From the NCBI GenBank assembly GCA_963781615.1, contig CAWAGI010000007.1, positions 87,652 through 151,651 of the forward strand: a stretch of 64,000 bases of DNA, in the 5' to 3' direction. The position numbers were made by a program, and so were the translations under genes. This document shows positions 1 to 62,365 of the stretch, piece after piece. Numbering within the stretch: position 1 is the first letter of the stretch; each line of letters opens with the position of its first letter. The notes beneath the pieces were generated by a model, which saw nothing but the letters and a program-made list of their open reading frames with translations, made no database searches and was not told where the DNA came from. The DNA comes from an uncultured Actinomycetes bacterium (GTDB taxonomy: Bacteria > Actinomycetota > Acidimicrobiia > IMCC26256 > JACDBD01).

Positions 1-567
1 GTCGACGAGGTGATGCAGCGCGCGGTTGCGCCGACGTTGCATGCGCTGGCCGCACGCGACATCACATACCACGGCGTCCTCTACGCCGGGCTCATGCTGA
101 CACCGGACGGGCTCAAGGTGCTCGAGTACAACGTGCGCTTCGGCGATCCCGAGGCCCAGGCGGTGCTGCCACGCCTGGCGAGCGACTTCGGGCAGTTGTG
201 CCACGACGCGGCAGCCGGTAGCTCAGACCTCGCCACGAAGTTCCGGAACGATGCCTGCGTGACGGTCGTGCTCGCAACCGATGGCTACCCGGCGTCTCCG
301 CGCAAGGGCGACGTCATCGAAGGCATCGACAACGCCGAGCAGCTGCCGGGCGTGACGGTGTTTCACGCCGGCACCAAGCAAGCCGACGGGGGGCAGGTGA
401 TGACCGCCGGAGGGCGCGTGCTCGACGTGACGGCCGTCGCGTCCACCCTGGCCGAGGCGCGCGAGCGCGCCTACGAGGCGGCCGGCCGCATCTCGTGGCC
501 CGGCGTCCAGTACCGGCGGGACATCGCGGCCGCGGCCGTAGAATCAGAGGGAAAGGAGCCCGCGTGA
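1..567 (+). CDS. purD: phosphoribosylamine-glycine ligase, C-terminal part (5-prime end outside window)
   Basis: Open in frame from base 1 (ORF track 10..567). LKVLEYNVRFGDPEAQAVLPRL and GGRVLDVTA are typical of the PurD ATP-grasp C-terminal region. The stop overlaps the purB start (GTGA at 564-567). Confidence 0.9.
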   Translation, partial: VDEVMQRAVAPTLHALAARDITYHGVLYAGLMLTPDGLKVLEYNVRFGDPEAQAVLPRLASDFGQLCHDAAAGSSDLATKFRNDACVTVVLATDGYPASPRKGDVIEGIDNAEQLPGVTVFHAGTKQADGGQVMTAGGRVLDVTAVASTLAEARERAYEAAGRISWPGVQYRRDIAAAAVESEGKEPA

Positions 568-1854
568 TCCCCCGGTACGCCCTGCCCGAGATGGCCGAGC
601 TGTTCACCGACGAGGCGCGGCTCGCCACGTGGCTCGACGTCGAGCTCCTCGCGGTCGAGGCGTGGGCGAAGCTCGGAGTCATCCCGCCGGCGGACGCCGA
701 GGCCATCCGCGACCGGGCATCCGTCACCGCCGCCGCCGTCGAGGAGCGAGAGCGCGTCACCGACCACGACGTCGCCGCCTTCGTCGACGTGGTCCAGGAG
801 TCCGTCGGCCTTCCCGCCGGTGCCTGGGTCCACCACGGCCTGACGTCGAGCGACGTCGTCGACACCGCGCTCTCGGTCACCTTGCTGCGGGCGTGCGACC
901 TCCTGCTCGACGCCGTCGCCGCCCTCGAGCGAGCAATCGCCGTACGGGCGCGCGAGTTCCGCGACACGCCGACAGTCGGGCGCACGCACGGAGTCCACGC
1001 CGAGCCGACGACGTTCGGCGCGAAGCTCGCGCTGTGGGCGCTCCAGCTCCGTCGCGACCGCGACCGCCTCGTCCGCGCCCGCGAGTCGGTGGCCGTCGGC
1101 AAGCTGTCGGGCGTCGTCGGGACCTACTCGAACGTGGACCCCGAGGTGGAGGCCTTCGTCTGCGAGCGGCTGGGGCTCACGCCGGTCCCGGCGAACCAGG
1201 TCGTCGCCCGCGACCGGCACGCCGAGTTCCTCTACGCGTGCGCAACGGTGGGGGCGTCGATCGAGAGCTTCGCCCTCGAGATCCGTCACCTCCAGCGCAC
1301 GGAAGTCCGCGAGGTCGAGGAGCCGTTCCGCGAGGGCACCCAGAAGGGCTCGAGCGCGATGCCCCACAAGCGCAACCCGTGGCGCTGCGAGCAGCTGTGC
1401 GGTCTGGCGCGCGTGCTGCGCGCCAACCTCCAGGCCGGCCTCGAGGACATCGCCCTCTGGCACGAGCGCGACATCTCACACTCCTCGGTGGAACGCATCG
1501 TCCTCGCCGACTCGGCGCAGCTCGCGTTCTACGTGCTCGTGCAGTTCCGGAAGATCGTCGAGGGGATGCGCGTGCATCCCGACCGGATGCTCGAGAACCT
1601 CGACTCCTCGTACGGGCTCGTGTTCAGCCAACCCGTGCTGCTGGCGCTCGTCGACGCCGGTCGGTCGCGCGACGACGCCTACCGGATCGTGCAACGCGCC
1701 GCGACGCGCACGTGGGAGGAGCGTGCTTCCGTTCCGCGCCGTGCTCGACGACGATCCCGACGTGCGCGCCACGCTCACGCCCGAGCGTCTCGACGAGTGC
1801 TTCGATCTCGGCCGCGCCCTCGCCCACGCCGGCCGGGCCGTGGATACGCTGTGA
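564..1854 (+). pseudogene. purB: adenylosuccinate lyase, reading frame broken near 1731 as sequenced
   Basis: From GTG 564 within ORF 495..1985: VIPRYALPEMAELF, GKLSGVVGTYSN and SSAMPHKRNP lyase signatures. After TWEERAS the frame becomes Arg-rich nonsense. The +1 frame from 1732 reads FRAVLDDDPDVRATLTPERLDECFDLGRALAHAGRAVDTL with a stop at 1852-1854. Confidence 0.85.
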
Positions 1855-1981
1855 GGGCAGCACCTCGGCCAGGCGCCGGGGCTTCCCCGGCGCCGTACCG
1901 AGAAGATGGTGGGCTGGAGCACTTGCGCTCGCAACTGCGACCAGAAATGTTCGCGCTCGACGTGCCGGCGACGTCCCGCCC

Positions 1982-2896
1982 GTGACGGGCATCGCGCTCC
2001 CGCACGCGTACACCGGCAAAGTCCGCGACCTGTACGACGTCGACCACGACCGCTTGCTGATCGTCGCGTCCGATCGCATCTCCGTCTTCGACGTGGTCCT
2101 CGACGATCTCGTCCCCGACAAGGGCCGGGCGCTGACGGCCCTGTCGACGTTCTGGTTCGAGGAGACCGCCGACCTCGCGCCCAACCACCTGATCTCGTCG
2201 GACCCCACCGACTTCCCGGAGACGGCCGGGTCCGACGTCGCGGGGCGGGCGATGCTGGTGCGCGCCACCCAGCCGGTCCGGCTCGAGTGCATCGGCCGGG
2301 GCTACCTGTTCGGGTCGGCGTGGTCCGAGTACGAGGAGCGGGGGACGGTCTACGGCCGGGCGATGCCGTCCGGGCTGCGTCAGGCCGAGCGCCTCCCGGA
2401 TCCGCTCTTCACGGCGACGACCAAAGCCGAGTCGGGCCACGACGAGCCGTTGACGGACGCCGCCGCCGCCGAGCTGGTGGGCGGGGAGCTCCTCGAGCAG
2501 ATCCGCGACGTCACGTTGCGCGTGTACGGGTTCGGCGCCGCGCTGGCCGAGTCGCGCGGGCTCATCCTCGCCGACACGAAGCTCGAGTTCGGCGTCCTCG
2601 ACGGCCGGCTGCTCGTGATCGACGAGATGCTCACGCCGGACTCCTCGCGCTACTGGCCCGGCGACGAGTACCGCGTCGGCATCTCGCCGCCGAGCTTCGA
2701 CAAGCAGTACGTGCGCGACTACTACCTCGGCACCGACTGGGATCGCAGCTCGCCGGCGCCGCGCCTCCCGGCCGACGTGATCCTCGGCACGCGCTCGCGG
2801 TATGTCGAGGCGTACGAGCTGTTGACTGGGAAGAGCTTCGACGAATGGCACGGCCCCGAGGAACCGAGAATCGAAGATGCCCGCCGGTACGATTGA
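1982..2896 (+). CDS. purC: phosphoribosylaminoimidazole-succinocarboxamide (SAICAR) synthase
   Basis: Last 304 codons of ORF 629..2896, starting at GTG 1982. Motifs: YTGKVRDLYDV, ASDRISVFD, ILADTKLEFG, LTPDSSRYW. Confidence 0.9.
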   Translation: MTGIALPHAYTGKVRDLYDVDHDRLLIVASDRISVFDVVLDDLVPDKGRALTALSTFWFEETADLAPNHLISSDPTDFPETAGSDVAGRAMLVRATQPVRLECIGRGYLFGSAWSEYEERGTVYGRAMPSGLRQAERLPDPLFTATTKAESGHDEPLTDAAAAELVGGELLEQIRDVTLRVYGFGAALAESRGLILADTKLEFGVLDGRLLVIDEMLTPDSSRYWPGDEYRVGISPPSFDKQYVRDYYLGTDWDRSSPAPRLPADVILGTRSRYVEAYELLTGKSFDEWHGPEEPRIEDARRYD

Positions 2897-11101: not shown

Positions 11102-11174
11102 TGGCCGGGGACGGCGTCGATCCGTCGACCCCACGCTTTTCAGGCGTGTGCTCTGCCAACTGAGCTACCCGGCC
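11102..11174 (-). tRNA. tRNA-Phe (GAA)
   Basis: The reverse complement is GGCCGGGTAGCTCAGTTGGCAGAGCACACGCCTGAAAAGCGTGGGGTCGACGGATCGACGCCGTCCCCGGCCA. It has a 7-bp acceptor stem, anticodon arm CACGC-CTGAAAA-GCGTG, and an unusual A at T-loop position 54. No CCA is encoded. Confidence 0.85.
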
Positions 11175-11203
11175 GGGAGCGGGCCGCGCACGCAGCCCGC
11201 CGG

Positions 11204-11278
11204 CGGTCCTGACGGGATTTGAACCCGCGAGCTCCGCCTTGACAGGGCGGCGTGCTAACCAGACTGCACCACAGGACC
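11204..11278 (-). tRNA. tRNA-Asp (GTC)
   Basis: The reverse complement is GGTCCTGTGGTGCAGTCTGGTTAGCACGCCGCCCTGTCAAGGCGGAGCTCGCGGGTTCAAATCCCGTCAGGACCG. Anticodon arm CCGCC-CTGTCAA-GGCGG, T-loop TTCAAAT. Confidence 0.9.
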
Positions 11279-11316
11279 ATGTCTCCGACGCTCGACGTTC
11301 GCGCCGCCGGCGCCTG

Positions 11317-11389
11317 TGCCCCCAGGGGAATTCGAATCCCCGCTACCGCCTTGAAAGGGCGGCGTCCTAGACCGCTAGACGATGGGGGC
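11317..11389 (-). tRNA. tRNA-Glu (TTC)
   Basis: The reverse complement is GCCCCCATCGTCTAGCGGTCTAGGACGCCGCCCTTTCAAGGCGGTAGCGGGGATTCGAATTCCCCTGGGGGCA. Anticodon arm CCGCC-CTTTCAA-GGCGG. Confidence 0.9.
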
Positions 11390-11491
11390 CCGTAGCTCCA
11401 CCGGGAGCATCGCATCGTATCAGCCACCCTTTCTCGTCCCGCCGGGCGATCAGTAGGGTCGGGGGAGTCGCCGCGGGCAGGAAAGAGAGAG

Positions 11492-11926
11492 ATGCGCCGA
11501 TTTCGGACCGTCGTCGCCGGGACACTCGTCTCGGCCATGACGCTCGTGACCTACCAGGTCGCCGCGGCGGGCACGACCGCCCGGCCCGCGCAATCGACGT
11601 CGGCTTTCTGCACGACTGCCCAACGGCTTCAGAGTGAGATCCAGGGCCTCGACGACATCGACCTCGAGTCCCTGAGCGTGCGGAGCATCAAGGCGATGTA
11701 CCGGCGCGACGTGAGCCTCATCAAGCAGCTCCAGAAGGAAGCTCCTCAGGAGCTGAAGGACGCGTTCAAGCGGCTGCGCCGCCTGTACCAGCGGGTCGTG
11801 GACGGAAAGCTCAAGCTCGGACAGTTGCCGAGCGCGATCTCGAGAGCAGCCGATGACCTCTCGACGATCTTCACGTATCTCGAAGACGAGTGCGGCATCA
11901 CATTCGAGACGACGACCACCACCTGA
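11492..11926 (+). CDS. hypothetical secreted protein
   Basis: 144-aa ORF with signal-like N-terminus MRRFRTVVAGTLVSAMTLVTYQVAAAG and a helical charged body. GAAAGAGAGAG lies upstream of the ATG. No family recognised. Confidence 0.55.
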   Translation: MRRFRTVVAGTLVSAMTLVTYQVAAAGTTARPAQSTSAFCTTAQRLQSEIQGLDDIDLESLSVRSIKAMYRRDVSLIKQLQKEAPQELKDAFKRLRRLYQRVVDGKLKLGQLPSAISRAADDLSTIFTYLEDECGITFETTTTT

Positions 11927-11957
11927 GCGGCGGCCGATCCGTCGTACGATCGCCCCG

Positions 11958-12030
11958 GGGCCGCTAGCTCAGTTGGCAGAGCAACGGACTTTTAATCCGA
12001 TGGTCCGGGGTTCGATTCCCCGGCGGCCCA
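11958..12030 (+). tRNA. tRNA-Lys (TTT)
   Basis: GGGCCGCTAGCTCAGTTGGCAGAGCAACGGACTTTTAATCCGATGGTCCGGGGTTCGATTCCCCGGCGGCCCA. Acceptor GGGCCGC/GCGGCCC, anticodon loop CTTTTAA, T-arm CGGGG-TTCGATT-CCCCG. Confidence 0.9.
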
Positions 12031-18239: not shown

Positions 18240-18290
18240 GGGGGGCGATGTTAGGGGCGCGCCCCGTCGGCCCGTCCAAAGAGGATGGCG

Positions 18291-18713
18291 CTAGTCGGCG
18301 ACCCCGTCGGCGGTGAGGTCGCGCAGGGCGGCGCGGATCTGCTCGGCCGCCGCGTCGAGGGAACCCGCGGCCGGGTCGGGATCGGCGTGCGCGAACGACA
18401 GCTCACCGGCCGAGTTGATCGGGACGACGTGAATGTGGGCGTGCGGCACCTCGTCGCCGACGATCATCACGCCGATCCGCCGGGGCCGGAACGCCTGCTC
18501 CTGTGCCTTGCCGATGGTCTGCGCGACGGTGAACAGGTGTCGCGTCACCTCGGGGTCGAGATCGATCCAGTGGTCGACCTCGCGACGCGGCACAACGAGC
18601 GTGTGGCCGGGATTCATGGGCGCGATCGACAGGAACGCGACGCACTCGTCGTCGCGCCAGACGAACACGCCGGGGATCTCGCCGTCGATGATCTTCGTGA
18701 AGATCGAAGGCAC
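18291..18713 (-). CDS. HIT-family (histidine triad) nucleotide hydrolase
   Basis: From GTG 18711-18713: PSIFTKIIDGEIPG and the triad HAHIHVVP. The ORF track shows it fused to the upstream LLM gene only because of a frame break. Confidence 0.8.
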   Translation of the reverse strand: MPSIFTKIIDGEIPGVFVWRDDECVAFLSIAPMNPGHTLVVPRREVDHWIDLDPEVTRHLFTVAQTIGKAQEQAFRPRRIGVMIVGDEVPHAHIHVVPINSAGELSFAHADPDPAAGSLDAAAEQIRAALRDLTADGVAD

Positions 18714-18724: not shown

Positions 18725-19640
18725 CTACCCAGATGCCGCCGCGCGCACGGCCGGCGCAACGTCGGCCATGAACCGTTCGAGCGTGCCGGCGTCGCCGAAG
18801 TCGTGGAACTGCAGCACGAACCCGCGAACGCCCGCGCTCGACGTCGGCCACGAGCGCGGCCGCCACCTCATCCGCAGTGCCGGTCACCACGCCGCCCCAA
18901 CTGCCGAAGCGGCGTCGCGCCACCTCTTCGACCTCCTGGCGGTCGCCGGCTCCCGCCGCCAACCCGATCGGGTGCTGCACGGAGACGCGCGCGTCACCCG
19001 CGAGGGTGGCGAGGTCGCCGATCCGGTCGGTGGCATACGACGGGCAGTTCCACCAGTCGGCGTATTCGCGCACGAGCGGCATCGTGAGCCTCGGGCCGGC
19101 CCCGCCGATGTGCACGGGGATGTGCGCTTGCGCGGGGACGGGCCGGCCGATCGCACCCTCGAGCCGGTAGTGCTCGCCCGTGTAGTCGAACGGCTCACCG
19201 GCGAACATCCGCGGGAGGATCTCGAGCGTCTCGCGGAGCCGAGCGGCCCGCTCCGGCGCCGGCCGGGCGTCGATGCCGAAGGCGCGGAACTCGGCGTCGA
19301 CCGAGCCCCAGCCGAGGCCGAGCTCGAGGCGTCCGTTGCTCAGCGCGTCGACGGTTGCGGCCATTTTCCCCAGCACCGCAGGGTGGCGGAACGGGTCCGC
19401 CGTGACCAGGTGGCCGAGGCGGATCCCGTTCGTGCGCGTGGCGAGCCCGGCCGCGAGCGTCCAGCCCTCGAACGTGTCCCATTGCGGCGCGGCGGGCGCC
19501 GCCAGGTGGTCCATGAGCCAGACCGAGTCGAACCCGGCCGTCTCCGCCGCGAGCGTGCGCTCGAGGATCGTGTCGAACGACATGCGCAGCTGCGGAAGAA
19601 ACAGCCCGAACCACACGCTGACGTCGCTGACAGTCGACAC
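18725..19640 (-). pseudogene. LLM-class (luciferase-like) flavin/F420-dependent oxidoreductase, frame broken near 18830 as sequenced
   Basis: The N-terminal 270 codons of ORF 18291..19640 are typical (AGFDSVWLMDHL, LGLGWG). After VADVERG the shifted frame gives VRGFVLQFHDFGDAGTLERFMADVAPAVRAAASG, with stop TAG at 18725-18727, a typical LLM C-terminus. Confidence 0.75.
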
Positions 19641-22774: not shown

Positions 22775-23450
22775 TCAGGCCGCCGGCGCCGGGCTCCGGA
22801 GCATCACGATCCCGACGACCAGCATCCACAGCACGAACAGGGCCAGCGGGATGAAGAACAAGCCCCCGAGGAGGACGATGACGCCGGCCACGTAGCCGGT
22901 GATCACGAGCCACCGTGGGAGCAGGGCGGAGCGGCCTCCCGCTGCCGACGACGTGATGATGAGCAAGCCGGCTGCGGCTGCCCCGAACAGGACCAGAGCG
23001 CCGATCCCGAGGCTCTCGAAGGTGCGGAGGACGTCGGCGTCTCGAACGACCGGGGCATCGCCGAACTCGACGCTGGCCGAGACGGAGGCGGTGCCGAGCG
23101 CCGCGACCGCGAGCATCGCCACGAACAGCAATCCGCTCGCGAACGCCGTCGTGCCGACCCATTCGCGCGCCGGATCCCGCGTTCCGAAGGCGTTCTCGGA
23201 GCACGCCGAGGAAGACGAGGAAGGCCAGCGCGGCGAGCGCCAGCACGATCGCGCCGATGATGATCATCCTGCGGTTGTCGCTGTCGGCGTAATACCGGAG
23301 CCACTTCAGGTTCGACTCGTCCCCGTCCGGCGTGTCCGAGACGAACAGGAAGCCGACGACGAACAGCACCGCGAACACGATCGCGGCGATGCCGCCCCAC
23401 AGATGCGATGAACCGCGCGTCGACGTCCTCGGAGTCGCTGGAGTTGCCAT
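22775..23450 (-). pseudogene. hypothetical multi-pass membrane protein, frame broken near 23165 as sequenced
   Basis: ATG 23450 after GAGGAGGA gives MATPATPRTSTRGSSHLWGGIAAIVFAVLFVVGF...VLRERLRNAGSG. The other frame continues with EWVGTTAFASGLLFVAMLAVAALG... (ORF 22775..23131). Together they make about 225 aa with four hydrophobic helices. Confidence 0.6.
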
Positions 23451-25181: not shown

Positions 25182-26505
25182 GTGGCGCACGCCCATGGGG
25201 ACGGACGGGTCGCGATACCTCGGCGGACGCGCCGTCTCCTCACGACGGTGTCCGTCGTGCTCGGCATCGCGACCCTGACCGGGGTCGTGCTCCTGCGATC
25301 GCCGGGCGACGTCGGCAAGCGGACCGGTCCCGACATCGGTCTGGTCAGCCGTGTCTACGACGCGACCGTCGCCTCCACCCGGACGGGGCCGTGCGCGAAC
25401 ACGACGGAAGCCGATCGCATCCCCTGCGAGCACGTCCGCTTCCGGCTCAATCAGGGCCCGGACAAGGGCAAGACCACGTCGATCGACTTCCCGCGCTCGC
25501 CGACGACGCCCCACCTCGACAAGGGCGATGACGTGGTCCTGTCGTACGAGCCGAGGGCGGAGCCGGGCTTCCGGTACCAGTTCGCCGACCGGCAACGCCG
25601 GCCGGTGCTGCTGTGGCTGGCGGTCATCTTCGCCGTGGCCGTCGTGGCGCTCGGACGCCTGCGCGGTCTCGCCGCGCTGGTCGGGCTGGCCGCCAGCATC
25701 GTCGTGCTGTTGACGTTCGTCTTACCCGCGATCCTCGACGGTCGGAGCCCGGTGCTCGTCGCCGTGTTCGGCGCAAGCGCGATCGCCTACCTGGCGCTGT
25801 ACCTCGCGAACGGGGTCAACACCCGGACGACGGTCGCACTGCTCGGCACGCTCGCCACGCTCGCGCTCACCGTGCTGCTCGCAAGCGTGTTCACGTCCCT
25901 CGCGCAGATCTCCGGATTCGCGAGCGAGGAAGCGCTGCTCGTGAAGATCGGGGAACGAGGCCTCGACCTCAGCGGCGTCGTCCTCGGCGGGATGGTGATC
26001 GGCGCGCTGGGCGCGCTCGACGACATGACGGTCACGCAGGCGGCGGCGGTGTGGGAGCTCCGATCGGCCAACCCACAGCTCCCACGTGGCGCGATCTTTC
26101 GCTCGGCCATGCGGATCGGGCGCGACCACGTCGCGTCGACGGTCAACACGCTCGCCCTCGCGTATGCGGGCGCCGCCTTGCCGTTGCTGATCCTGTTCGT
26201 GCAGTCGAGACAGTCGCTGGGAACAGTGGCGAACAGCGAAACGGTCGCGACGGAGATCCTCGAGCGCGCTCGTCGGCAGCATCGGCATCGTGGCATCGGT
26301 TCCACTCACGACGTGGCTCGCGGCGCGGGTCGTGGGCGAAGGCGGCCCACCCGGCCGTCGTCGGCGCGGCAGGGGCCCGAGGGAGCGCCCGTCGTCCCGA
26401 GCGCCCGTACCGCCCGATACGGAGTCCGAGTTCTGGGACGGACCCGGCGAGGACCACCCCGTGACGCCCTGGTCGGCGGCGCCACGGGGTCGCGAGCAGG
26501 ATTGA
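25182..26505 (+). pseudogene. YibE/F-family membrane protein, frame broken near 26268 as sequenced
   Basis: From GTG 25182 inside ORF 23880..26528: signal-anchor, periplasmic domain, then polytopic region (GALDDMTVTQAAAVWEL, HVASTVNTLALAYAGAALPLL). After TEILER the next frame gives LVGSIGIVASVPLTTWLAARVV... (ORF 26290..26505). Confidence 0.7.
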
Positions 26506-31095: not shown

Positions 31096-31602
31096 GTGCG
31101 CTCTCCCGACACGCTGACCGCGCCCCGCCGTATCCCGGCCAAGTGGTGGCCGTGGTGCTCGACCGCCGCCCGCCTCGTGCTGGCCGGCGTCTGGGCATGG
31201 GCCGGCGTCGCAAAGCTCGGCGATCCCGACGCGGCCGTGCGCGCCGTCCGCGCCTACGACATCCTGCCCGAGGCGTTCGTGAAGCCGTTCGCCTGGGGGT
31301 TGCCGTTCGTCGAGCTGGCACTGGCGGTGCTGCTGCTCCTCGGCTTGGCCACGCGGCCGGCGGCCTGGGCGTCGGTCGTGGTTCTTCTCGTGTTCATCGG
31401 CGCCACTGCCTCGGTGTGGGCGCGCGGCCTCCAGATCGACTGCGGCTGCTTCGGCGGCGGCGGCCAAGCCGCGGCCGATTCCGCCAGCTACCTGCGGGAC
31501 ATGGGGCGCGACGGCCTGCTCCTGTGCCTGGCCCTCCTCGTCGCGGCCGGTGCACCGAGCCGTTTCGCGCTCGACGACGTCGCCCGACCGGAAGGCCGCT
31601 GA
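31096..31602 (+). CDS. MauE/DoxX-family membrane protein
   Basis: Four hydrophobic helices and IDCGCFGGGG, typical of MauE-like redox-associated membrane proteins. Followed directly by a DsbA-like gene. Confidence 0.7.
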   Translation: MRSPDTLTAPRRIPAKWWPWCSTAARLVLAGVWAWAGVAKLGDPDAAVRAVRAYDILPEAFVKPFAWGLPFVELALAVLLLLGLATRPAAWASVVVLLVFIGATASVWARGLQIDCGCFGGGGQAAADSASYLRDMGRDGLLLCLALLVAAGAPSRFALDDVARPEGR

Positions 31603-31603
31603 C

Positions 31604-32327
31604 GTGCCACCGCAACGTTCACGTTCCCGCGCCGTCGCCGCCGCTCGGAAGGGTAGGACCCGCGCGTGGATGTGGTGGGTGCTCGGCGGGGTCGTCATCG
31701 CCGCCGTCGTGATCGGCGTCGTGGTCCAACAGAGTCGCTCGTCGACCGAGCACGCCAAGGCCGTCAAGCCGGCGAGCGCGGTCGGTCCCAACGGGGGTGT
31801 ACTGGTTGGCGACGCGAACGCGCCGGTGACGATCACGGAGTACGGCGACTTCCAGTGCCCGGCTTGCGCCGAGCTCCACCAGCTGTGGGAGCCGACGCTC
31901 GAACAGCTCATCCAGCAGGGAAACGTGAAGTTCGAGTTCGTCGGCCTCGAGTATCTCGACCGCGGGACGACGGAGTCGCTGCGATCGGCCGCCGCCGCGA
32001 CGTGCGCGGCCGACGCCGACAAGTTCCTCGACTACTACAACGCCCTCTACAACGGCCAGTCGCGCGAGCGAGAACTCAGGGTTCCTGACGAACGAGCAGC
32101 TCAAGAGCTTCGGCAGATCCGTCGGGCTCACTGATCCCGCCTTTACACGCTGCGTCGACGCGGGCAAGTACACCGGATGGGTGACGAAGAACACCGACGG
32201 CGCTTCGCAACGTGGTGTCACGTCCACGCCGACCGTGCTCGTGAACGACAAGGTGATCAGCAACTCGGTCGCGGCCGATCCGGAGCGCCTGACCGATGCC
32301 GTGAACCAGGCTGCCGGTCAGGGCTAG
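31604..32327 (+). pseudogene. DsbA-family thiol:disulfide oxidoreductase, frame broken near 32065 as sequenced
   Basis: GTG 31604 inside ORF 31550..32134: membrane anchor, then TEYGDFQCPACAE (CPAC active site). After YNALYNGQ the next frame gives ENSGFLTNEQLKSFGRSVGLTDPAFTRCVDAGKYTGWVTKNTDGASQRGVTSTPTVLVND..., with stop TAG at 32325-32327. Confidence 0.75.
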
Positions 32328-35896: not shown

Positions 35897-36509
35897 CTAC
35901 AGCAACTTCAGGTGCCGGGCGTTGTCGAACCGGGTGGCGACGTCGGGCCAGTTGACGATGTTCCAGAACGCGTCGACCCAGTCGGCCTTCACGTTCTTGT
36001 ACTGCAGGTAGTACGCGTGCTCCCACATGTCGAGCACGAGCAGCGGGGGCGCCCCCTGCCCGACGTTGCTCTGGTGGTCGTACACCTGCTCGACGATGAG
36101 CCGCTGCGCGACGGGCTCCCACGTCGAGCGCGCCCCAACCCGACCCCTGGACGTTGAGCGACGCCTCGCTGAGCTGGTTGCGGAATCCCTCGAAGGTGCC
36201 GAACGACTCCTCGATCGCGGCCGCGAGGTCGCCGTCGGGCTTGTCGCCGCCGTCGGGGCTCATGTTGTTCCAGAACAGCGAGTGCAGGACGTGTCCCGAC
36301 AGGTTGAAGGCCAGGTTCTTCTGGAGCTGGTTGATCGTGCCGAACTCTTCGCTCTCGCGCGCAGCGGCGAGCTTCTCGAGCGCAGTGTTGGCGCCCTTCA
36401 CGTACGTCGCATGGTGCTTGTCGTGGTGCAGCTCGAGGATCTGGGCGGAGTAGTGCGGCTCGAGGGCCGCGTAGTCGTAGGGCAGGTCGGGCAGCGTGTA
36501 CTCGGGCAT
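35897..36509 (-). pseudogene. sodA: Fe/Mn superoxide dismutase, frame broken near 36123 as sequenced
   Basis: ATG 36507-36509 after GGAGGA: [34 protein letters not shown]. The C-terminal part lies in another frame: [43 protein letters not shown] (ORF 35897..36085 and its upstream extension). Confidence 0.85.
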
Positions 36510-38651: not shown

Positions 38652-39876
38652 ATGTCGGCCCAGCGCGTCGCCATGATCAGCGTCCACACATCGCCGCTCG
38701 CACAGCCGGGCGCCGGTGACGGCGGCGGCATGAACGTCTACGTCCGCTCGCTGGCGTCGAACCTCGCCCGCGCCGGCGTGCCGTGCGACGTCCTGACCCG
38801 CGCCGAGCACGCCGAGCAGCCGCCGGTCGTAGAGGTCGAGCACGGGTTTCGGGTCGTGCACCTGGCGGCGGGGCCGAGCGCGCCGGTTCCGAAGCAGTCG
38901 CTGCCCGACCTCGTCGACCCGTTCGTCGAGGCCGCGCTGGCCTTCTTCGCCGCCGACGGCGACAGGCCCGACATCCTGCACGCCAACTACTGGGTCTCCG
39001 GCGCGGTCGGGCACCGCCTCAAGCACGAGCTGGACCTGCCGCTCGTCGCGACGTTCCACACCCTCGATCGCGTCAAGGCCGAAGCCGGCGTGGGCGATGA
39101 TCCCGAGACGCGCGCGGGTGGAGAGCGAGATCGTCAATTGCGCCGACATGGTGATCGCCGCGACCGACGACGAACGCCGGCAGCTCGTCACGCTCTACGG
39201 GGCCGCGCGCGACCGGGTCGAGATCGTGCCACCCGGCGTCGATCACCGCGTCTTCGCCCCCGGTGACCGCGGCTCGGCACGGCGCCGGCTGCGGCTCGAC
39301 CCGGACGGGCCGGTGCTCCTCTACGTCGGGCGGATCCAGCCGCTCAAGGGCGCCGACCTCGCGGTGCGGACCCTCGCGGAGCTCGACGGGGACGTCTCGC
39401 TCCTCGTGGTGGGCGGACCGAGCGGCAGCGACGGGGAAGAGGAGATGCTCGGCCTCCGCACGCTCGTGGCCGAGCTGGACCTCGACGAGCAGGTGCGCTT
39501 CGTCCCGCCCCAGCCCCATGAGCAGCTCGTCGCCTACTACCAGGCCGCGGACGTGTGCCTCGTCCCTTCGCGCACGGAGTCGTTCGGGCTCGTCGCCCTG
39601 GAGGCGGCGGCGTGCGGGACGCCGGTCGTCGCCGCCGACGTCGGCGGCCTGCGATCGGTGGTCGACGACGGGCACACGGGCTTCCTCGTCGAAGGGCGCG
39701 CCGCCGTCGACTACGCGGCGCCCGTCGACGTGCTGCTCTCCGATCCCGATCTCGCCCGGACGATGGGCTCGAGCGCGCTGGCGCGCTCAGGCCGGTACAT
39801 GTGGAGCATCGCGGCGGCGCGGTTGCGACGGCTGTACGGCGACCTCGCGACCCGAGCGCCGGTGGAGTGCTCGTAG
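38652..39876 (+). pseudogene. mshA: D-inositol-3-phosphate glycosyltransferase (mycothiol biosynthesis), frame broken near 39110 as sequenced
   Basis: ORF 38652..39266 gives VAMISVHTSPLAQPGAGDGGGMNVYV and HANYWVSG. ORF 39097..39876 gives RVESEIVNCADMVIA, VGRIQPLKG, PSRTESFGLVALEAAACGTPVVAADVGGL. The two halves join between DDPE and RARVESE. Confidence 0.85.
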
Positions 39877-41657: not shown

Positions 41658-42594
41658 TTGGCGACCACCCCGGCTCGGCGGTTCGTCTCCTTCCTGTCCG
41701 ACTACGGCCACGCCGACGAGTTCGTCGGCGTGTGCAAGTCGGTGATGCTGAGCCTCGTCCCCGACCTGCAGATCATCGACATCACCCACGACCTCCCTCC
41801 GCACGACGTGCGCGCCGGCGCGCTCACGCTGGTCCGCGCCGCGCAGTACCTCCCGGACGGCGGCATCGTCCTCGCCGTCGTCGACCCGGGCGTCGGCACC
41901 GACCGCCGGCTGGTGGCGGTCGAGGTCGAGCACGGAGTCCTGCTCGGTCCGGACAACGGCCTGCTGGCGCCGGGCGTCGCCATCCTCGGTGGCGCGCGGC
42001 GCGTGGTTTCCCTCACGAACACCGAGCACCACCTGCCGGCGCCCGGCCCGACGTTCGCCGGGTCGCGACGTCCTCGCGCCCGCCGCCGCGCACCTCGCGG
42101 CCGGCGTCGACGCCGACGAGCTGGGCGACGAGGTCGATCCCGCCGGGCTCGTCCCCGGCCTCGTCTCACTGCCCCAGCACGACGAGGGCGGCGCGATCCA
42201 CGGCGAGGTGTGGTGGATCGACCGGTTCGGCAACTGCCAGCTCAACATCGACCCCGACGAGCTGCGCGCCCACGGCGCCGAACCGGGCGCGCCGGTCGAG
42301 GTCCGCTTTTCTCCCGGCGCCCCTCCCAGCGCCCTCGCAAGCTCGGGCTCTGCTCCGACGGTCGGCAAAGCCGCCGTCTCCGCGGGTGAACAGGCGCGCT
42401 CGGTGCGCTGGGTGCACACGTACGGCGACGCCAAACCCGCTGAGCTCGTCCTGCTCGTCGACTCCTACGGCCTGACGTCACTCGCCCTCGACCGCGGCTC
42501 GGCCGCTTCCGAGTGCAAGCTCGAGCCGGCATCGCCGGTCACGCTCGTCCCGCCCGGCGCCACCGTCACCGGCACGAGCCGGGACGGCGCGTAG
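41658..42594 (+). pseudogene. SAM hydrolase / SAM-dependent halogenase family (DUF62) protein, frame broken at about 42063 as sequenced
   Basis: ORF 41658..42389 starts FLSDYGHADEFVGVCKSVM, VVDPGVGT, GPDNGLL. After PTFAG, skipping t42063 gives RDVLAPAAAHLAAG..., then WWIDRFGNCQLN and LVDSYGLTSLAL (ORF 41989..42594). Confidence 0.8.
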
Positions 42595-50849: not shown

Positions 50850-51830
50850 GTGGCGTTCCCCGAACACCGGTCGCGGCGGCTCCGTCGCACGCCTGCGCTG
50901 CGCCGCCTCGTCGGCGAGACGCACGTCACCGTCGACGACCTCGTCGCGCCGCTCTTCGTGAAGGACGGCATCGACACGCCCGAGCCGGTGGCGTCGATGC
51001 CCGGCGTGCTCCAGCACACCCAGGAGAGCCTTCGCAAGGAGGTGCGCGGCCTCGCCGACCTCGGAATTCCCGCGGTCGTCCTCTTCGGCGTGCCGGCGGC
51101 GAAGGACGCCACCGGATCGGGCGCCGACGCACCCGACGGCGTCGTGCAGGTCGCGTTGCGCTCGCTGCGCGACGAGGTCGGTGACGACCTCGTGCTCGTC
51201 GCCGACAACTGCCTCGACGAGTACACCGATCACGGTCACTGCGGCGTCCTGACGCCCGACGGCGAGGTCGACAACGACGTCACCATCGAGCGCTACGCCG
51301 AGATCGCGGTGTCGCAGGCCGACGCGGGTGCCGACGTCGTCGCCCCGTCGGGGATGATGGACGGACAGGTCGGCGCGATCCGCGCCGCGCTCGACTCCGC
51401 GTCACACACCGGCACCGCCATCCTGGCGTACTCGGCGAAGTACGCCTCGGCCCTGTACGGCCCCTTCCGGGACGCGGCCGAGTGCGCGCCTCAGTTCGGT
51501 GACCGCCGCGGCTATCAGATGGACCCGCGGAACGCCCGTGAGGCCGTCGACGAGACGGTGCTCGACGTCGACGAAGGCGCCGACATGGTCATGGTGAAAC
51601 CGGCGCTCGCGTACCTCGACGTGATCAGCGCCGTACGCGAGTCCGTCGACGTCCCCGTCGCTGCATTCCACGTGAGCGGCGAGTACGCGATGGTGAAGGC
51701 AGCGGCGGAGCTCGGCTGGCTCGACGGTGACGCCGTCGGGTTCGAGCATCTCGTCGCGATCAAACGTGCCGGGGCCGACTTCGTCTTGACATACCTCGCG
51801 CGCGAGGCCGCCGAGCGGCTCAACAGCTGA
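50850..51830 (+). CDS. hemB: porphobilinogen synthase
   Basis: [49 protein letters not shown] (Schiff-base Lys). Confidence 0.9.
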
Positions 51831-51831
51831 C

Positions 51832-53110
51832 TTGGAATCGCTCTTCGATCGGGCGCTGGCGCGCATTCCCGGTGGAGTGAATTCCCCGGTACGCGCGTTC
51901 GGTGCGGTCGGAGGCGAACCGTTCTTCGTCGCCCGCGGCGAAGGCGCATACGTCGTCGACACCGACGGACGGCGCTACGTCGATTATGTGCAGTCGTGGG
52001 GTGCGTCGATCCTCGGGCACGCGCATCCGAAGGTCGTCGAAGCTGTGCAGCGCGCCGCCGCCGACGGCACGTCGTACGGCGCGCCGACGACGTGCGAGGT
52101 GGAACTGGCCGAAGCCATCTGCGAGCGGGTCCCCGCGGTCGAAAAGGTGCGACTCGTCTCGTCGGGGACCGAAGCGGCCATGACCGCGATCCGGCTCGCA
52201 CGCGGCGCGACCGGCCGGTCGAAGATCGTCAAGTTCGCCGGCTGCTACCACGGTCACCTCGACGCCCTGCTCGTCGCGGCCGGGAGCGGCGTCGCGACGT
52301 TCGGGCTCCCGGGCAGTGCCGGGGTCACCGAGGGCACGGTCGCCGACACGATCGTCGTGCCATACAACGACGCCGACGCGGTGGACGAGCTGTTCGCCCG
52401 TCTCGGCGGCGAGGTGGCGGCGGTGCTGGTCGAACCGGTGGCGGCGAACATGGGCCTCGTTCCCGCCGGCGACGCGTTCCTCGCCGCGCTCCGTCGCGGC
52501 TGCGACGAGCACGACGCCCTGCTCGTCTTCGACGAGGTGATCACGGGCTTCCGGGTGGGGCCGGCCGGCGCGCAGGGGCTCCTCGGCGCGTCGCCCGACC
52601 TGTCGTTGTTCGGCAAGGTCGTCGGCGGCGGGCTCCCGCTCGCCGCGGTCGGCGGACGCGCCGACGTGATGGACGAGCTCGCCCCGGTCGGGCCCGTGTA
52701 CCAGGCCGGCACGCTGTCCGGGAACCCGCTCGCCACCGCCGCCGGGCTCGCCGCGCTCTCGCTGCTCGACGACGATGCCTACGCGCGCCTCGAGGCGATC
52801 GCGACCCGCCTCGCCGGGGGCCTGGCCGAAGTGCTCGACGGCGCCGGCGTGACCGCACAAGTGCCTCGAGTCGCAAACGCTGGTCGGGCTCTTCTTCGCC
52901 GACCGCCCGGTGCGGAACTACGACGACGCGCACGCCGCCGACCACAAGGCGTACGCGTCCTTCTTCCACGGCTTGCTCGACCGGGGCGTCTACATCGCAC
53001 CGAGTGGCTACGAGGTGATGTTCCCGAGCCTCGCCCACGGCGACGTCGAGCTCGACCACACTTTCAGTGCCGCGACCGATGCGCTGCCGCGGCTCACCGT
53101 CGGCGGCTGA
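51832..53110 (+). pseudogene. hemL: glutamate-1-semialdehyde 2,1-aminomutase, frame broken near 52872 as sequenced
   Basis: [31 protein letters not shown] and [11 protein letters not shown] are in ORF 51832... After GVTAQVPR the next frame gives [55 protein letters not shown]..., with a stop at 53108-53110 (ORF 52910..53110). Confidence 0.85.
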
Positions 53111-53223
53111 CCCGCAGCGCGCCCCGTTCGCGCCGATCTGAGCGGTTTCGGGCGGTAGACGGGGCGCGGTCGGTTGCCTCATCATGCCTGCAAGGCACGA
53201 CCCGGCAACGGATCGAGGCCAGC

Positions 53224-53889
53224 TTGGACGGCGGGACGCGCGTCTTGATCGTCGACGACCACGCCATGCTGCGCGACGCCATGCGCGTGGCGCTCGAGCT
53301 TGCCGGCCACGACGTCATCGGCGAAGCCGGCAACGGCAACGAAGCGCTGCATCTCGTCGCGGAGCTCCGGCCCTCCGTGGTCCTGATGGACGTGTCGCTT
53401 CCCGGCCTCGACGGGATCGAGGTCACCCGGAGGTTGTGCGCACACGACGCCGACCTCCGTGTCGTCATGGTGACGATGCACGCCAACCCGGCGCTGGTTG
53501 CGCGAGCGGTTCGCGCCGGAGCGTGCGCCTACCTCACGAAGGACTTCGCCATGCAGGAGGTCGTGTCGACGGTGGAGAAGGTCGCCGCCGGGGACGTCGT
53601 GCTGTCACCGAACCTGGCGGGCTCCATGCTCCGGGAGCTCACCGCTCCCGACGACGTCAGGCATGACCTGATCACGAAGCGCGAAGCCGACGCGCTCCAG
53701 CTCCTCGCCGACGGGTACTCGACGCACGAGGTGGCGTCGCGCCTTCTCGTGAACGACCGCACCGTCTCCCGCGACCTGTCGTCGGCCTACGCGAAGCTCG
53801 ACGCCCGGCACCGCACCGAGGCGATGGTCGACCGGGTGCACTGGGGAATCATCGCCCGCGAGGTCTCGTCGGCCGCGGACGGGCAGTAG
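53224..53889 (+). CDS. NarL/FixJ (LuxR-type) two-component response regulator
   Basis: TTG 53224 in the tail of ORF 51832..53889. Receiver domain [13 protein letters not shown]...[13 protein letters not shown]...YLTKD and a LuxR HTH ([30 protein letters not shown]). No adjacent histidine kinase. Confidence 0.8.
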
Positions 53890-53890: not shown

Positions 53891-54130
53891 TCAGCGCTGC
53901 TGTTCGCGCTCCTGCGCCGCTTCGCGGCGCCGGCGAACTCGGTCCATGGCGAACAGCACCGCGAACGTGACCCCGACGAGAGCGGCGAACAGCACGAAGG
54001 CGAGCGCGCCGCCTCCGTTCTCCTTCCCGGCGTCGACGAGCTGCTGGGCGCCGGCAGGGGAGGCCACGAGGACGAGCGCGACGGTCGACGAGACGGCCAG
54101 CACCAGAAGGTCGCGGAGGCGACGGGTCAC
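53891..54130 (-). CDS. small secreted/C-terminally anchored hypothetical protein, last gene of the bc cluster
   Basis: GTG 54128-54130 follows GAGGAGG with 6-nt spacing. Sequence VTRRLRDLLVLAVSSTVALVLVASPAGAQQ..., then a hydrophobic helix ALAFVLFAALVGVTFAVLFAM and a basic tail. It starts 11 nt after the upstream stop. Confidence 0.55.
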   Translation of the reverse strand: MTRRLRDLLVLAVSSTVALVLVASPAGAQQLVDAGKENGGGALAFVLFAALVGVTFAVLFAMDRVRRRREAAQEREQQR

Positions 54131-54141
54131 GGTGATCCTCC

Positions 54142-54972
54142 TCACGTCCGCGCCGGAACGGGCGCCGGACCGCCCGTCTCCTGCTGCCGCGCCCGCTCGG
54201 CTTCGTCCCGCTCCCGCCAGTGGAGGCCGAGCAGACCGAGGCCGAAGAGCACGCCGGAGGCGAGGAAAGCGAGGATGGGCGGCAGCCGCAGCTGACCGAG
54301 ATCCTTGGTCAGCACCACGAAGCCGTTCTTGTCGGAGGTCGGGTCGCAGACGGGCTTCGGGGGTGGCACGCCGAACGGCGTGTTGACGGGCTGCACCGCG
54401 CACACCTCGACCACCGCGACGAGCGGCTTGTGGGTGAACTGGAAGTCCAGGAACTCCGGGTCGCTGCCGCCGATCTCGTACGTGTTGACCGTCTGGTAGT
54501 CGGTCACCTTGTCGAACTTGGCGAACTTGTTCTGCTCCGGGGTGGGCTTCAGGACGGCCGTCGGCTGAAGGGTGACGAGGCGTGCGTCGACGGCGGCCTT
54601 CACGTTCGCCGCCTCGATCGGGTCGACCTTCTCCTTCTTCGTGAGCTTCTTGGCCTGCGGGTACTTGATGGCGTCCGTCTTGCTGACGAACTGCTGCACG
54701 TTCCACGCGGGGATGCGGCCCTTCAGCGTGTTGAGCGGCGACGACGTGGTGATCCACAGCGTGCTGAGGATCACCATGAACCCCGCGAGGCCGGTGAAGG
54801 CGACGAGGAACCCGAGCCGGGCACCGAGGTTCGTCCCGAGCAGCAGGTAGATCGAGCCGCAGAACAGCCCGATGCCCGCCACGACTACGAGGATCCCGAG
54901 GATCGTCGGGTACCAGAGGTCCTTCGGGATGTTCTCGGTCGGCTGCGCCTGGGCGAGGAGGGACGTGATCAC
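54142..54972 (-). CDS. hypothetical membrane protein of the bc cluster
   Basis: 276-aa ORF with N-terminal hydrophobic helices, a roughly 150-aa extracytoplasmic domain and a C-terminal helix. It follows the dihaem cytochrome c gene after a 19-nt gap. No family recognised. Confidence 0.6.
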   Translation of the reverse strand: MITSLLAQAQPTENIPKDLWYPTILGILVVVAGIGLFCGSIYLLLGTNLGARLGFLVAFTGLAGFMVILSTLWITTSSPLNTLKGRIPAWNVQQFVSKTDAIKYPQAKKLTKKEKVDPIEAANVKAAVDARLVTLQPTAVLKPTPEQNKFAKFDKVTDYQTVNTYEIGGSDPEFLDFQFTHKPLVAVVEVCAVQPVNTPFGVPPPKPVCDPTSDKNGFVVLTKDLGQLRLPPILAFLASGVLFGLGLLGLHWRERDEAERARQQETGGPAPVPART

Positions 54973-56059: not shown

Positions 56060-56071
56060 GGCGTGTGGACC

Positions 56072-56926
56072 TCACACACAGGGCGCCCCCTCGGCCGTCT
56101 GCCCCGTGGTGTCCGTGCCGATCGGCGGGCCCTGGACGAGCGACGACGCCGCGGTGTCGACGGTGATCTGCCCACCCGACACCTCGAGCACGAAACGGTC
56201 GAGACCGCGCGGCGCGGGCCCGCCCTTCTTCTCGCCCACGCGGTTGTACTTCGAGCCGTGGCATGGGCACTCGAACCACTGCGACGACTCGCACCACGGC
56301 ACCCGGCAGCCGAGGTGCACGCACTTCTGGTACAGGGCGACGTACCCCTTCTCCATGCCGGCGACGATGCGGGGGTCGTACACCGTCTTCGCCTTGGCGA
56401 TGTCGTCCTCCGGGTACGGCTGGATGTACGTGCGGGCGGCGGCGTTGTAGAAGGGCAGCTTCTTGTCGAACTGCTGCTTTGCGTCGTCCTCGGACCCGAC
56501 GACGATCTTGGCGCCGAACCCGCCTGCGCTTCCCGGCCACAGGAAGCCGAGCATCGCCGCTCCCATGCCGGCGGCGAAGATGCCCAGCCCGGCGAGGATC
56601 CCGCGGTTGAAGAACTGGCGCCGGGTGAGCCCGATCTCCTCCTCTTCGACGGGCACGTACTCGACCGGCGCGCGGGCGCCGGCCGGCTCGAGCGCCTGCC
56701 GCGACTCGTCGGCGTGCGCCCGTGCATCCTCGTCGAGCTCGGCCACGCCGGTGCCCACCGTCGCGGGAACGCGCGACTCCTTCTCCGGCATCGAGCGGTC
56801 GCTCTTGCGCGTCTCGCGGCTGAGGCGTCCGGTGGTCGAGCGACGCCGACCCTCGGCCACGATCGCGACGGCGGCGAGGATCAGTAGTGCGGGGATGGCG
56901 ATGATGAGAACAGTCGAAGAGTCCAC
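56072..56926 (-). CDS. qcrA: Rieske 2Fe-2S subunit (QcrA-like)
   Basis: Rieske boxes CVHLGC and CPCHGS, a twin-arginine-like LTRRQFF, and N-terminal membrane helices. Confidence 0.88.
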   Translation of the reverse strand: MDSSTVLIIAIPALLILAAVAIVAEGRRRSTTGRLSRETRKSDRSMPEKESRVPATVGTGVAELDEDARAHADESRQALEPAGARAPVEYVPVEEEEIGLTRRQFFNRGILAGLGIFAAGMGAAMLGFLWPGSAGGFGAKIVVGSEDDAKQQFDKKLPFYNAAARTYIQPYPEDDIAKAKTVYDPRIVAGMEKGYVALYQKCVHLGCRVPWCESSQWFECPCHGSKYNRVGEKKGGPAPRGLDRFVLEVSGGQITVDTAASSLVQGPPIGTDTTGQTAEGAPCV

Positions 56927-61268: not shown

Positions 61269-61345
61269 TCGCAGCTTGAGCCGCGTCGGCGGCACCGCGG
61301 TAGCCTGCGCGCGCCAGGCCACCGGAACGGTGACATGGGAGCGAG

Positions 61346-61812
61346 ATGACCGCCTACCTGCCGATCCTGACGATGATCTGTCTGGTCGTGGTGTTCATCG
61401 CGGCGTCGTTTCTCGCTCGCAGCTGCTCGGACCGCGACGGCCGACGTCGGCGAAGCAGGCGCCCTACGAGTCCGGGATCGTGCCCGAGCAGGAGCCGACC
61501 GAGCGCTTCCCGGTGAAGTTCTATCTCGTCGCGATGACGTTCATCGTCCTCGACGTCGAGATCATCTTCCTCTATCCCTTCACGACGATCTTCCGGAACT
61601 TCGTACCGGCCGCGTACGGGCTCGTCATCATGGGCGTGTTCCTGCTCACGCTGCTCGTGCCGTTCGCGTACCTGCTGTCGACGGGCGCGCTCGACTGGGG
61701 CCCCGTGCGCCGGCTCGTGGGCCGGGCGAGCGCGGGCGTGCTGCGCGCGTCGGGGAAGCCCGGTGCGCGCGGTCTTGATCCCGCCGGCGAGCGCGAGACG
61801 GAAGCAGCCTGA
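61346..61812 (+). pseudogene. nuoA: NADH-quinone oxidoreductase subunit A, frame broken at about 61421 as sequenced
   Basis: ATG 61346 gives MTAYLPILTMICLVVVFIAASFLAR. The next frame (ORF 61276..61812) continues with [52 protein letters not shown]. One base appears to be missing between them. Confidence 0.85.
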
Positions 61813-62365
61813 TGGGGCTCGACCAGGTCCCGTACTCGTTCCTCACCGGGCGACTCGAAGATCTCGTGAAGTGGGCGCGCCGCAACTCGGTGTGGCCGGC
61901 CACATTCGGGCTCGCGTGCTGCGCGCTCGAGATGATGGCAGCGGGCGCCGCGCACTACGACCTCGCGCGCTACGGGATGGAGGTCTTCCCGCGAGTCCCC
62001 GCCAGGCCGACCTCATGATCGTCGCCGGCCGAGTCAGCCAGAAGATGGGGCCGGTGCTGCGCCAGGTGTACGACCAGATGGTCGAGCCCAAGTGGGTCAT
62101 CTCGATGGGCGTGTGCGCGAGCACGGGCGGGATGTTCAACAACTACGCGCTCGTGCAGGGCGTCGACCAGATCGTGCCCGTCGACATCTACGTTCCCGGT
62201 TGCCCGCCCGGTCCCGAGACGCTCATGTACGGGATCCTCATGCTCCACGACGAGATCCGGAGCGGCGAGATCATGAAGCGGCGCGCCCGCACCAGCCACG
62301 GCGGCGCCGGCATCCAGGTCGAGCAGCGCGACGGCACCCCGGCCGACAACTTGGCCACCCGGTAG
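61812..62365 (+). pseudogene. nuoB: NADH-quinone oxidoreductase subunit B, frame broken at about 61989 as sequenced
   Basis: ORF 61812..62018 gives [16 protein letters not shown]...YGMEVF. ORF 61763..62365 continues with [38 protein letters not shown]. One base appears to be missing after EVF. Confidence 0.85.

Follow-up and report, generated by a model that had tools for sequence, protein, structure and literature searches.

The window, a 64,000-nt stretch with a GC content of 71% that forms part of a 386,806-bp contig from an Acidimicrobiia bacterium, carries 11 conserved genes with interrupted reading frames, and about one-fifth of its genes are mis-called. Frame breaks are present at all 11 sites named in the original prediction, each within about 10 nt of the position given there. 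The lesions were placed using gaps parsed from pairwise BLAST alignments with related loci; those covering nuoA and nuoB were gathered through a metagenome scan. The affected genes are listed below, and the support figures give the number of loci that show the net shift relative to the window out of the number of loci spanning the site.

564..1854, plus strand: purB (adenylosuccinate lyase); extra base at 1724-1725, +1 against 3 of 3 loci
18725..19640, minus strand: LLM-class flavin oxidoreductase; net +1 at 18827-18832, a small garbled patch
22775..23450, minus strand: multi-pass (four-helix) membrane protein; extra base at 23165-23167, +1 against 7 of 8 loci
25210..26505 (start approximate), plus strand: YibE/F-family membrane protein; extra base at 26261-26263, +1 against 2 of 2 loci
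31550..32327, plus strand: DsbA-like thioredoxin-fold protein; extra base at 32064-32069, +1 against 11 of 11 loci
35897..36509, minus strand: sodA (Fe/Mn superoxide dismutase); extra base at 36125 (range 36122-36136), +1 against 23 of 24 loci
38652..39876, plus strand: mshA-type GT4 glycosyltransferase; 2 nt missing at 39108-39116, -2 against 12 of 12 loci
41658..42594, plus strand: DUF62 / SAM hydroxide adenosyltransferase; extra base at 42058-42063, +1 against 15 of 15 loci
51832..53110, plus strand: hemL (glutamate-1-semialdehyde aminomutase); extra base at 52869-52875, +1 against 5 of 5 loci
61346..61812, plus strand: nuoA; base missing after about 61416, -1 against 48 of 51 loci
61812..62365, plus strand: nuoB; base missing at 61989-61991, -1 against 51 of 51 loci

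The breaks comprise eight +1 insertions, two -1 deletions and, in mshA, a loss of 2 nt. Both insertions and deletions therefore occur, as had been predicted, and the description of the breaks as single-nucleotide events holds for ten sites but has to be amended for mshA. Homopolymers of at least 4 nt are absent from all 11 break sites. In every one of the 11 genes, a single edit suffices to recover an open reading frame free of internal stops, and the restored length matches that of the orthologs wherever it could be checked (304 aa for the LLM oxidoreductase, 155 aa for NuoA and 184 aa for NuoB). Pfam profile coordinates run on continuously over the frame change in six genes (purB, YibE/F, DsbA-like, sodA, mshA and DUF62). 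Together with the 11 restored frames, this bears out the view that fragments in different frames jointly rebuild conserved proteins. Four short fragments, namely the C-termini of the LLM oxidoreductase and HemL and the N-termini of NuoA and NuoB, matched no Pfam profile, and the lesions in these genes were resolved through DNA alignments to relatives.

The insertion in purB shifts the last 42 codons or so, and removal of the extra base yields a 429-aa ORF in which Lyase_1 is followed by ADSL_C, whose profile positions 1-37 and 39-77 occupy different frames in the unedited sequence. The gene ends at 1854, which corrects the earlier account, and is about 8 aa shorter than in relatives, owing to a 117-nt element that separates it from purC. 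In the YibE/F gene the extra base lies in the context CCT[C]GAGCG, and the YibE_F profile is covered from 1 to 220 in the first frame and from 220 to 240 in the second. The DsbA-like protein displays Thioredoxin_4 positions 5-105 and 98-155 on the two sides of its break, plus DSBA 118-180. The sodA insertion reads GCGCT[C]GACG on the coding strand, with Sod_Fe_N present and Sod_Fe_C divided into 1-40 and 43-102; that of DUF62 reads TTCG[C]CGGG, with SAM_HAT_N divided into 1-124 and 120-145 and followed by SAM_HAT_C. The multi-pass membrane protein at 22775..23450 has a weak Yip1-like match, and its ortholog alignment shows 73% identity before the break and 92% after it; the corresponding values for hemL are 82% and 77%.

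The deletion in nuoA (CTCGC-TCGCAG) detaches the first 24 codons, and Oxidored_q4 6-99 is found in the downstream frame only, as is Oxidored_q6 33-128 in nuoB, where the deletion context is TTCC-CGCGAG. In mshA, one CG unit is lost from a (CG)n run, which makes it the only one of the 11 sites with a change in repeat-unit number. Its Glyco_transf_4 profile continues from 2-109 to 116-168 over the frames and is followed by Glycos_transf_1. The C-terminal fragment, 39097-39876, is annotated as a 259-aa protein of its own in the source record and constitutes a singleton protein cluster known only from the source contig.

Two of the breaks give rise to chimeric ORFs, both of which had been anticipated as misleading. 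The first, at 18294-19649 on the minus strand (also delimited as 18291-19640), couples a Bac_luciferase match (20-188) with a HIT domain that belongs to the downstream gene at 18291 to about 18713. The second, at 51790-53886 on the plus strand (also delimited as 51832-53889), contains Aminotran_3 7-338 (of 403) followed by Response_reg and GerE, the latter two from a LuxR-type response regulator located downstream of hemL at about 53182-53889. The component genes are separate in relatives, where hemL and the response regulator encode proteins of 429 aa and 235 aa and the LLM oxidoreductase and HIT protein are likewise encoded apart. The LLM-HIT and HemL-response regulator ORFs are not to be taken for fusion proteins.

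A comparison with related loci reveals the breaks to be private to this assembly. Multi-locus DNA alignments cover ten of the sites, and in these all or nearly all relatives (from 2 of 2 to 51 of 51 loci) remain in frame. The lesion in the LLM gene is supported by protein alignments to six loci, with orthologs of 304 aa, and by a DNA alignment to L136, a JGI short-read contig that is 96.97% identical to the window over 1618 nt and carries an intact 304-aa LLM gene. The garbled patch at 18827-18832 is the sole indel difference between L136 and the window. Over the approximately 58 kb of the window covered by relatives, no coding breaks beyond the 11 were detected, and the other genes of the window have full-length Pfam matches.

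The same comparison bears on the possibility that the indels are real and very recent, whether through a hypermutator, the onset of genome decay or the consensus of a defective sub-population. The lesions do stand in the deposited sequence, insertions are seen as well as deletions, and the CG-unit loss in mshA is a dinucleotide-repeat contraction of the kind that slippage would give. Real mutation would, however, have inactivated about one-fifth of the genes, including purB, hemL, nuoA, nuoB and sodA, with one lesion each, and a population 97% identical to this one, sampled by short reads, retains the LLM gene intact. Conservation downstream of the breaks is undiminished: for the nine breaks with usable protein alignments, orthologs are 70-96% identical beyond the break, compared with 71-96% before it. 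The secondary lesions and relaxed constraint expected of genuine pseudogenes were found neither in the corrected ORFs nor in the downstream identities. Eight of the corrected proteins were looked up by exact match in a collection of 15 billion sequences and none had an identical counterpart, a result that is uninformative on the cause of the breaks.

Pseudogene-rich reductive genomes, such as those of Mycobacterium leprae and recent endosymbionts, have many frameshifted housekeeping genes, and the window resembles them in this respect. It differs from them in having a single lesion per gene with no extra stops and no deletions, in keeping its similarity to orthologs beyond the breaks, in its normal GC content and coding density, and in the existence of a near-conspecific population with an intact copy (of the LLM gene). 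The distribution of the lesions is also difficult to reconcile with mutation. Eight of the 11 are single-base insertions outside homopolymers and no site lies in a run longer than 3 nt, whereas the 82 homopolymer runs of at least 5 nt in the window are untouched, which speaks against replication slippage, as it would favour such runs. Genuine mutation is, accordingly, considered an improbable source of the breaks.

Full-length proteins might also still be produced from broken frames by programmed ribosomal frameshifting or transcriptional slippage. Recoding is known from the +1 and -1 frameshifting of prfB and dnaX and from transcriptional slippage at the poly(A) tracts of endosymbionts, and in these systems, as in every case described here, two frames jointly encode one complete protein. 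The window, however, offers no common or conserved slippery heptamer and no long homopolymer, the contexts being heterogeneous GC-rich strings, and the net shifts are of three kinds (+1, -1 and -2) that differ in direction and size. The orthologs have no frame change, a single frame being used by all or nearly all relatives at the ten sites, so that no signal is conserved as it is in prfB and dnaX. An explanation by recoding is therefore regarded as scarcely credible.

We further analyzed how frame breaks among relatives depend on sequencing technology. The controls comprised three related Nanopore-only loci (L003, L013 and L035) of about 20 kb each from the Microflora Danica MAGs, which were assembled with Flye and one round of Medaka without short reads (PMC12313526). 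Private indels of a length not divisible by three numbered 15 in L003, 36 in L013 and 76 in L035, equivalent to 7-39 per 10 kb. By contrast, 11 apparently short-read MAG loci, amounting to about 165 kb, contain no coding frame breaks. The difference between 11 breaks in about 58 kb of the window and none in the 165 kb of control sequence corresponds to a Poisson P of about 2e-8, even with the control rate set at its 95% upper limit. The pattern thus follows sequencing technology, which also counts against real mutation.

The type of error found in the Nanopore-only relatives is the same as in the window. Among the events called against short-read loci, 79 of 113 are +1 insertions. The +1 insertions with a resolved context (n=91, with 86 in L003, L013 and L035 and 5 in the window) add a C or a G in 87% of cases, and 68% of them extend no run, in contexts such as C[G]C, T[C]G and G[C]G. 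The inserted base falls within an alternating C/G run of at least 3 nt in 47% of events, compared with 25% of random positions, in agreement with the prediction that the joins sit in alternating G/C strings. One of the events, at position 13231 of L013, is the sodA insertion of the window, with the same base in an identical context. L013 is 89-90% identical to L003 and L035, neither of which has this insertion, and 85% identical to the window. Its recurrence in a MAG that is not a sister of the window indicates a recurrent, context-driven error and not shared ancestry, and is a further argument against genuine mutation.

Residual indels that split genes in Nanopore assemblies form the target of the IDEEL full-length-protein test and are treated by Sereika et al. 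2022 (PMC9262707). The breaks in the window resemble such indels in that they are 1-2 nt long and cut otherwise intact conserved genes into adjacent ORFs, at a density that is higher in related Nanopore-only MAGs and zero in the apparently short-read ones. Nanopore errors classically take the form of deletions in long homopolymers. The window departs from this, since 8 of its 11 lesions are insertions, the sites are non-homopolymeric and alternating C/G is enriched, which is a less documented pattern.

Taken together, the private nature of the lesions, the intact gene in L136 and the Nanopore signature support the earlier reading of base-calling or assembly indels in a GC-rich context. We estimate a probability of about 0.9 that the 11 breaks are a long-read assembly or base-calling artefact and do not represent real gene loss. 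Most probably, the source assembly was built from Nanopore reads only, without short-read polishing, and we infer both this platform and that the source reads would not support the indels. The indirect indications for such a source are the length of the contig (386,806 bp), its origin in a soil-type lineage and its presence at NCBI and ENA with unnamed proteins. In a soil Acidimicrobiia bacterium with 71% GC, the consensus step would have added a base, mostly C or G, at eight scattered non-homopolymer positions and dropped one or two bases at three sites, often within or beside alternating C/G strings. Each such error would cut an intact conserved gene into two ORFs, and at two sites it would fuse the first half to the gene that follows. 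In the organism itself, purB, hemL, nuoA, nuoB, sodA, mshA and the five others are almost certainly intact.

Two further possibilities were considered. In one, several co-existing strains would have been collapsed into a chimeric consensus at polymorphic sites, with no role for base-calling. The LLM and hemL sites do lie in small patches with clustered differences, and soil populations are micro-diverse, but the bias towards +1 insertions of C or G that is common to other Nanopore MAGs would be left unexplained. This very unlikely variant would still amount to an assembly artefact and offers no separate biological reading. In the other, to which we likewise attach very little weight, the indels would be real and corrected at the level of RNA or the ribosome by a widespread mechanism independent of any motif or, in a milder form, an unrecognised modification of CpG-rich DNA in this lineage would trigger the miscalls. 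With such a correction, a living soil population of Acidimicrobiia would make full-length PurB, HemL, NuoA/B, SodA and the other proteins despite the breaks; with the modification, the apparent errors would chart an epigenetic mark.

As consensus errors, the breaks matter for data quality and not for biology. The biology of the locus is ordinary, and purB, hemL, nuoA, nuoB, sodA, mshA and the remaining five genes should be annotated as intact. Mis-calling of about one gene in five is enough to skew analyses of pathway completeness, pseudogenes and protein families, and the situation is worse in the related Nanopore-only MAG loci used as representatives of GTDB species, with 7-39 frameshifting indels per 10 kb. 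Insertion-biased, non-homopolymeric errors would be expected to go unnoticed when coding density is checked, since DNA of high GC content remains open in several frames and gene callers continue to cover it with ORFs. High-GC long-read MAGs of this kind need frameshift-aware annotation or short-read polishing. The finding is of moderate practical relevance for users of such MAGs and of low biological relevance.

A number of additional positions were evaluated as candidate breaks and rejected. Position 4375 is intergenic, upstream of the purL start, and 36616/36660, 41422 and 53087-53196 are each intergenic as well. An Rfam search of the intergenic repeats returned no known family. The ORFs at 53942-54136 and 54172-54972 on the minus strand are separate genes in relatives, and an in-frame stop at about 56060-56074 falls where the Rieske gene adjoins that for cytochrome c. 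The region 1845-1970, a candidate for a second purB frameshift, corresponds to the 117-nt inserted element.

The window has a GC content of 69–73% along its entire length, and a codon-usage frame scan predicts about 60 genes, including a pur operon, a hem cluster, a menaquinol-cytochrome c reductase cluster and the start of a nuo operon. Its nearest public genomes are metagenome-assembled genomes (MAGs) of soil Acidimicrobiia, with 83–85% nucleotide identity and conserved gene order. In the protein database, two proteins of the window find 100% matches, which share a single contig of 386,806 bp. Syntenic loci were collected for most of the window in one genome scan and one metagenome scan, and further loci came from contigs with a homolog of purM, of cytochrome b or of an LLM-class flavin oxidoreductase (LLM). 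A contig labelled as a Bifidobacterium breve MAG (L015; CAMDCC010000006.1; 67.8% GC) aligns over ~10 kb to the Acidimicrobiia region at ~72% nucleotide identity, and is probably mis-binned. The stretch of low coding potential at 10.6–13.7 kb contains four tRNA genes (11102–12030; three on the minus strand, one on the plus strand), flanked by ORFs without a Pfam match; its gene content is unlike that of the relatives, and the region is apparently variable.

All gaps were parsed from BLAST alignments of the window against the syntenic loci, which cover ~58 kb. Net shifts private to the window and near-unanimous across loci were found at ten sites. The eleventh, in LLM, is revealed by L136, a 1646-bp short-read JGI contig that is 96.97% identical to window 18040–19656, has its sole indel patch at 18827–18832 and encodes an intact LLM of 304 aa. 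The eleven frame breaks of the original prediction thus exist, at positions that were right to within 10 nt.

Frame breaks in the window, with the net shift and the number of loci showing it among those covering the site
1724, purB, +1, 3/3 loci
18827–18832, LLM, net +1 in the window, versus L136
23165, four-helix membrane protein, +1, 7/8 loci
26261, YibE/F, +1, 2/2 loci
32064, DsbA-like protein, +1, 11/11 loci
36122, sodA, +1, 23/24 loci
39108, mshA, -2, 12/12 loci
42058, DUF62, +1, 15/15 loci
52869, hemL, +1, 5/5 loci
~61416, nuoA, -1, 48/51 loci
61989, nuoB, -1, 51/51 loci

Only two relatives support the YibE/F break, and only three the purB break. Pfam alone exposes six of the eleven breaks (purB, YibE/F, the DsbA-like protein, sodA, mshA and DUF62), because the profile coordinates carry on over the frame change. 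No further unanimous frameshifting indel was found inside coding regions in the ~58 kb covered by relatives, and genes in the remaining stretches have full-length Pfam matches.

The lesions comprise eight +1 insertions, two -1 deletions and one -2 deletion. Their description as single-nucleotide breaks fails at mshA, where a (CG)n run is one CG unit (2 nt) short. Alternating C/G strings contain or adjoin most of the lesions, as had been noted, and none of the eleven sites lies in a homopolymer longer than 3 nt, yet the window holds 82 runs of at least 5 nt. One edit restores a stop-free ORF in each gene, and after editing LLM, NuoA and NuoB have 304, 155 and 184 aa, the lengths of their orthologs. 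Ortholog identity is 70–96% past the break versus 71–96% ahead of it at the nine sites with usable protein alignments, in keeping with the proposed lack of further decay; for nuoA and nuoB the protein pairs took off-frame ORFs, and both rest on DNA alignments. Two breaks generate the misleading chimeric ORFs that had been pointed out: ORF 18294–19649(-) joins Bac_luciferase (20–188) to a HIT domain, and ORF 51790–53886(+) joins Aminotran_3 (7–338) to Response_reg and GerE. Relatives encode these parts separately, as LLM (304 aa) and HIT (139–140 aa), and as HemL (429 aa) and a regulator (235 aa).

Three of the related loci, L003, L013 and L035, belong to Microflora Danica long-read MAGs, a catalogue for which Nanopore reads went through Flye and a single Medaka round, without short reads (PMC12313526). 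These loci, of ~20 kb each, carry 15, 36 and 76 private indels that are not multiples of 3 (7, 18 and 39 per 10 kb), a density far above that of the window; the other eleven MAG loci carry 0–12, mostly intergenic or lineage-shared. A strict coding-frame-switch test detects 6, 17 and 24 events in L003, L013 and L035 and none in any of the eleven others (~165 kb), and is conservative, recovering two of the five window sites that pass the coverage filter; a sixth, YibE/F, has too few covering loci. From the MEGAHIT-style k141_ contig names of many and from catalogue names, we infer that the eleven control loci are short-read assemblies. All three Nanopore loci sit in the GTDB species-representative collection, and L003 and L035 (94% identical) have some private frameshifting indels at identical sites.

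The Nanopore events share the signature of the window lesions. Against short-read loci, 79 of 113 called events are +1 insertions. The +1 insertions that could be resolved number 91, including five from the window; C or G accounts for 87% of them, and 68% extend no run. They occur most often in the contexts C[G]C, T[C]G and G[C]G, and the inserted base falls within an alternating C/G run of at least 3 nt in 47% of cases versus 25% of random positions. L013 also has the sodA insertion of the window, in exactly the same place (CCCACGT[C]GAGCGCG). The insertion is missing from L003 and L035, although they are nearer to L013 (89–90% identity) than the window is (85%). The coincidence therefore reflects a recurrent context-dependent error rather than inheritance; an overlap of this kind would arise by chance with a probability roughly estimated at 0.03.

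The frame breaks are very probably not a biological feature, and the simplest account is that they are residual consensus errors of a long-read MAG of moderate coverage, probably Nanopore-only. The Nanopore signature and the absence of coding frame breaks from the eleven other loci support the original preference for base-calling or assembly indels in GC-rich context; collapse of strains into one consensus is a sub-type of such an artefact. Genuine recent inactivation in a mutator or decaying lineage is improbable, as it would require that about one fifth of the genes, including some for purine, haem and respiratory functions, each took a single hit from a kind of mutation avoiding homopolymers, and that the indel pattern among relatives follows sequencing technology, whereas a 97%-identical population retains an intact LLM. 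Programmed recoding is more improbable still, because the frame change is not conserved and the sites have no signal in common.

Under the error account, consensus indels of a long-read assembly would split intact genes. Long-read indels are known to frameshift gene calls, and Nanopore R10.4 assemblies need ~40x coverage to be clear of them (PMC9262707). The usual error is a homopolymer deletion, in contrast to the insertion-biased, non-homopolymeric errors of this high-GC window. Coding density served the catalogue authors as an error screen, which flagged mainly low-GC archaeal MAGs (PMC12313526). This check would be insensitive in 70% GC genomes because off-frame ORFs remain open, as in the ORF list of the window. 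The breaks are of low interest apart from this warning on the data quality of high-GC long-read MAGs.

The end of purB differs from the original account. A 117-nt insertion at 1853–1970 separates purB from purC, which overlap in three relatives, and supplies the stop, so that purB ends at 1854, ~8 aa shorter. The insertion holds a perfect 10-bp GC hairpin (GGCGCCGGGG/CCCCGGCGCC), has a relative in the hemL-hemB spacer of locus L052 (6770–6845; 83% over 76 nt), and resembles a small mobile element of intergenic spacers.

A GC-rich two-hairpin repeat of ~55 nt (core CGGCGGCGGCTTTGCCGACCGCCG...AGCCGGAGCTTGCGACGGCG) is dispersed in the intergenic spacers of this lineage, often with a Shine-Dalgarno sequence and a start codon immediately 3' of it. 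Compensatory changes occur in some of its stem pairs, and no Rfam match was found for it.

Copies of the ~55-nt repeat
42310–42384, window, inside the DUF62 coding sequence
34285–34340, window
19665–19713, window
1047–1178, locus L062
Other loci: L066, L008, L010, L058, L137 and others

The copy in the DUF62/SAM_HAT_C coding region is an in-frame 75-nt insertion (+25 aa) absent from nine of nine relatives. Directly 3' of DUF62, at 42597–42689, lies a hydrophobic micro-ORF of 30 codons (MRPGTTIAIAVLLFIILAAAFAQFVLRLGP), whose position and sequence are kept in all aligned relatives; this conservation suggests that it likely encodes a real small membrane peptide.
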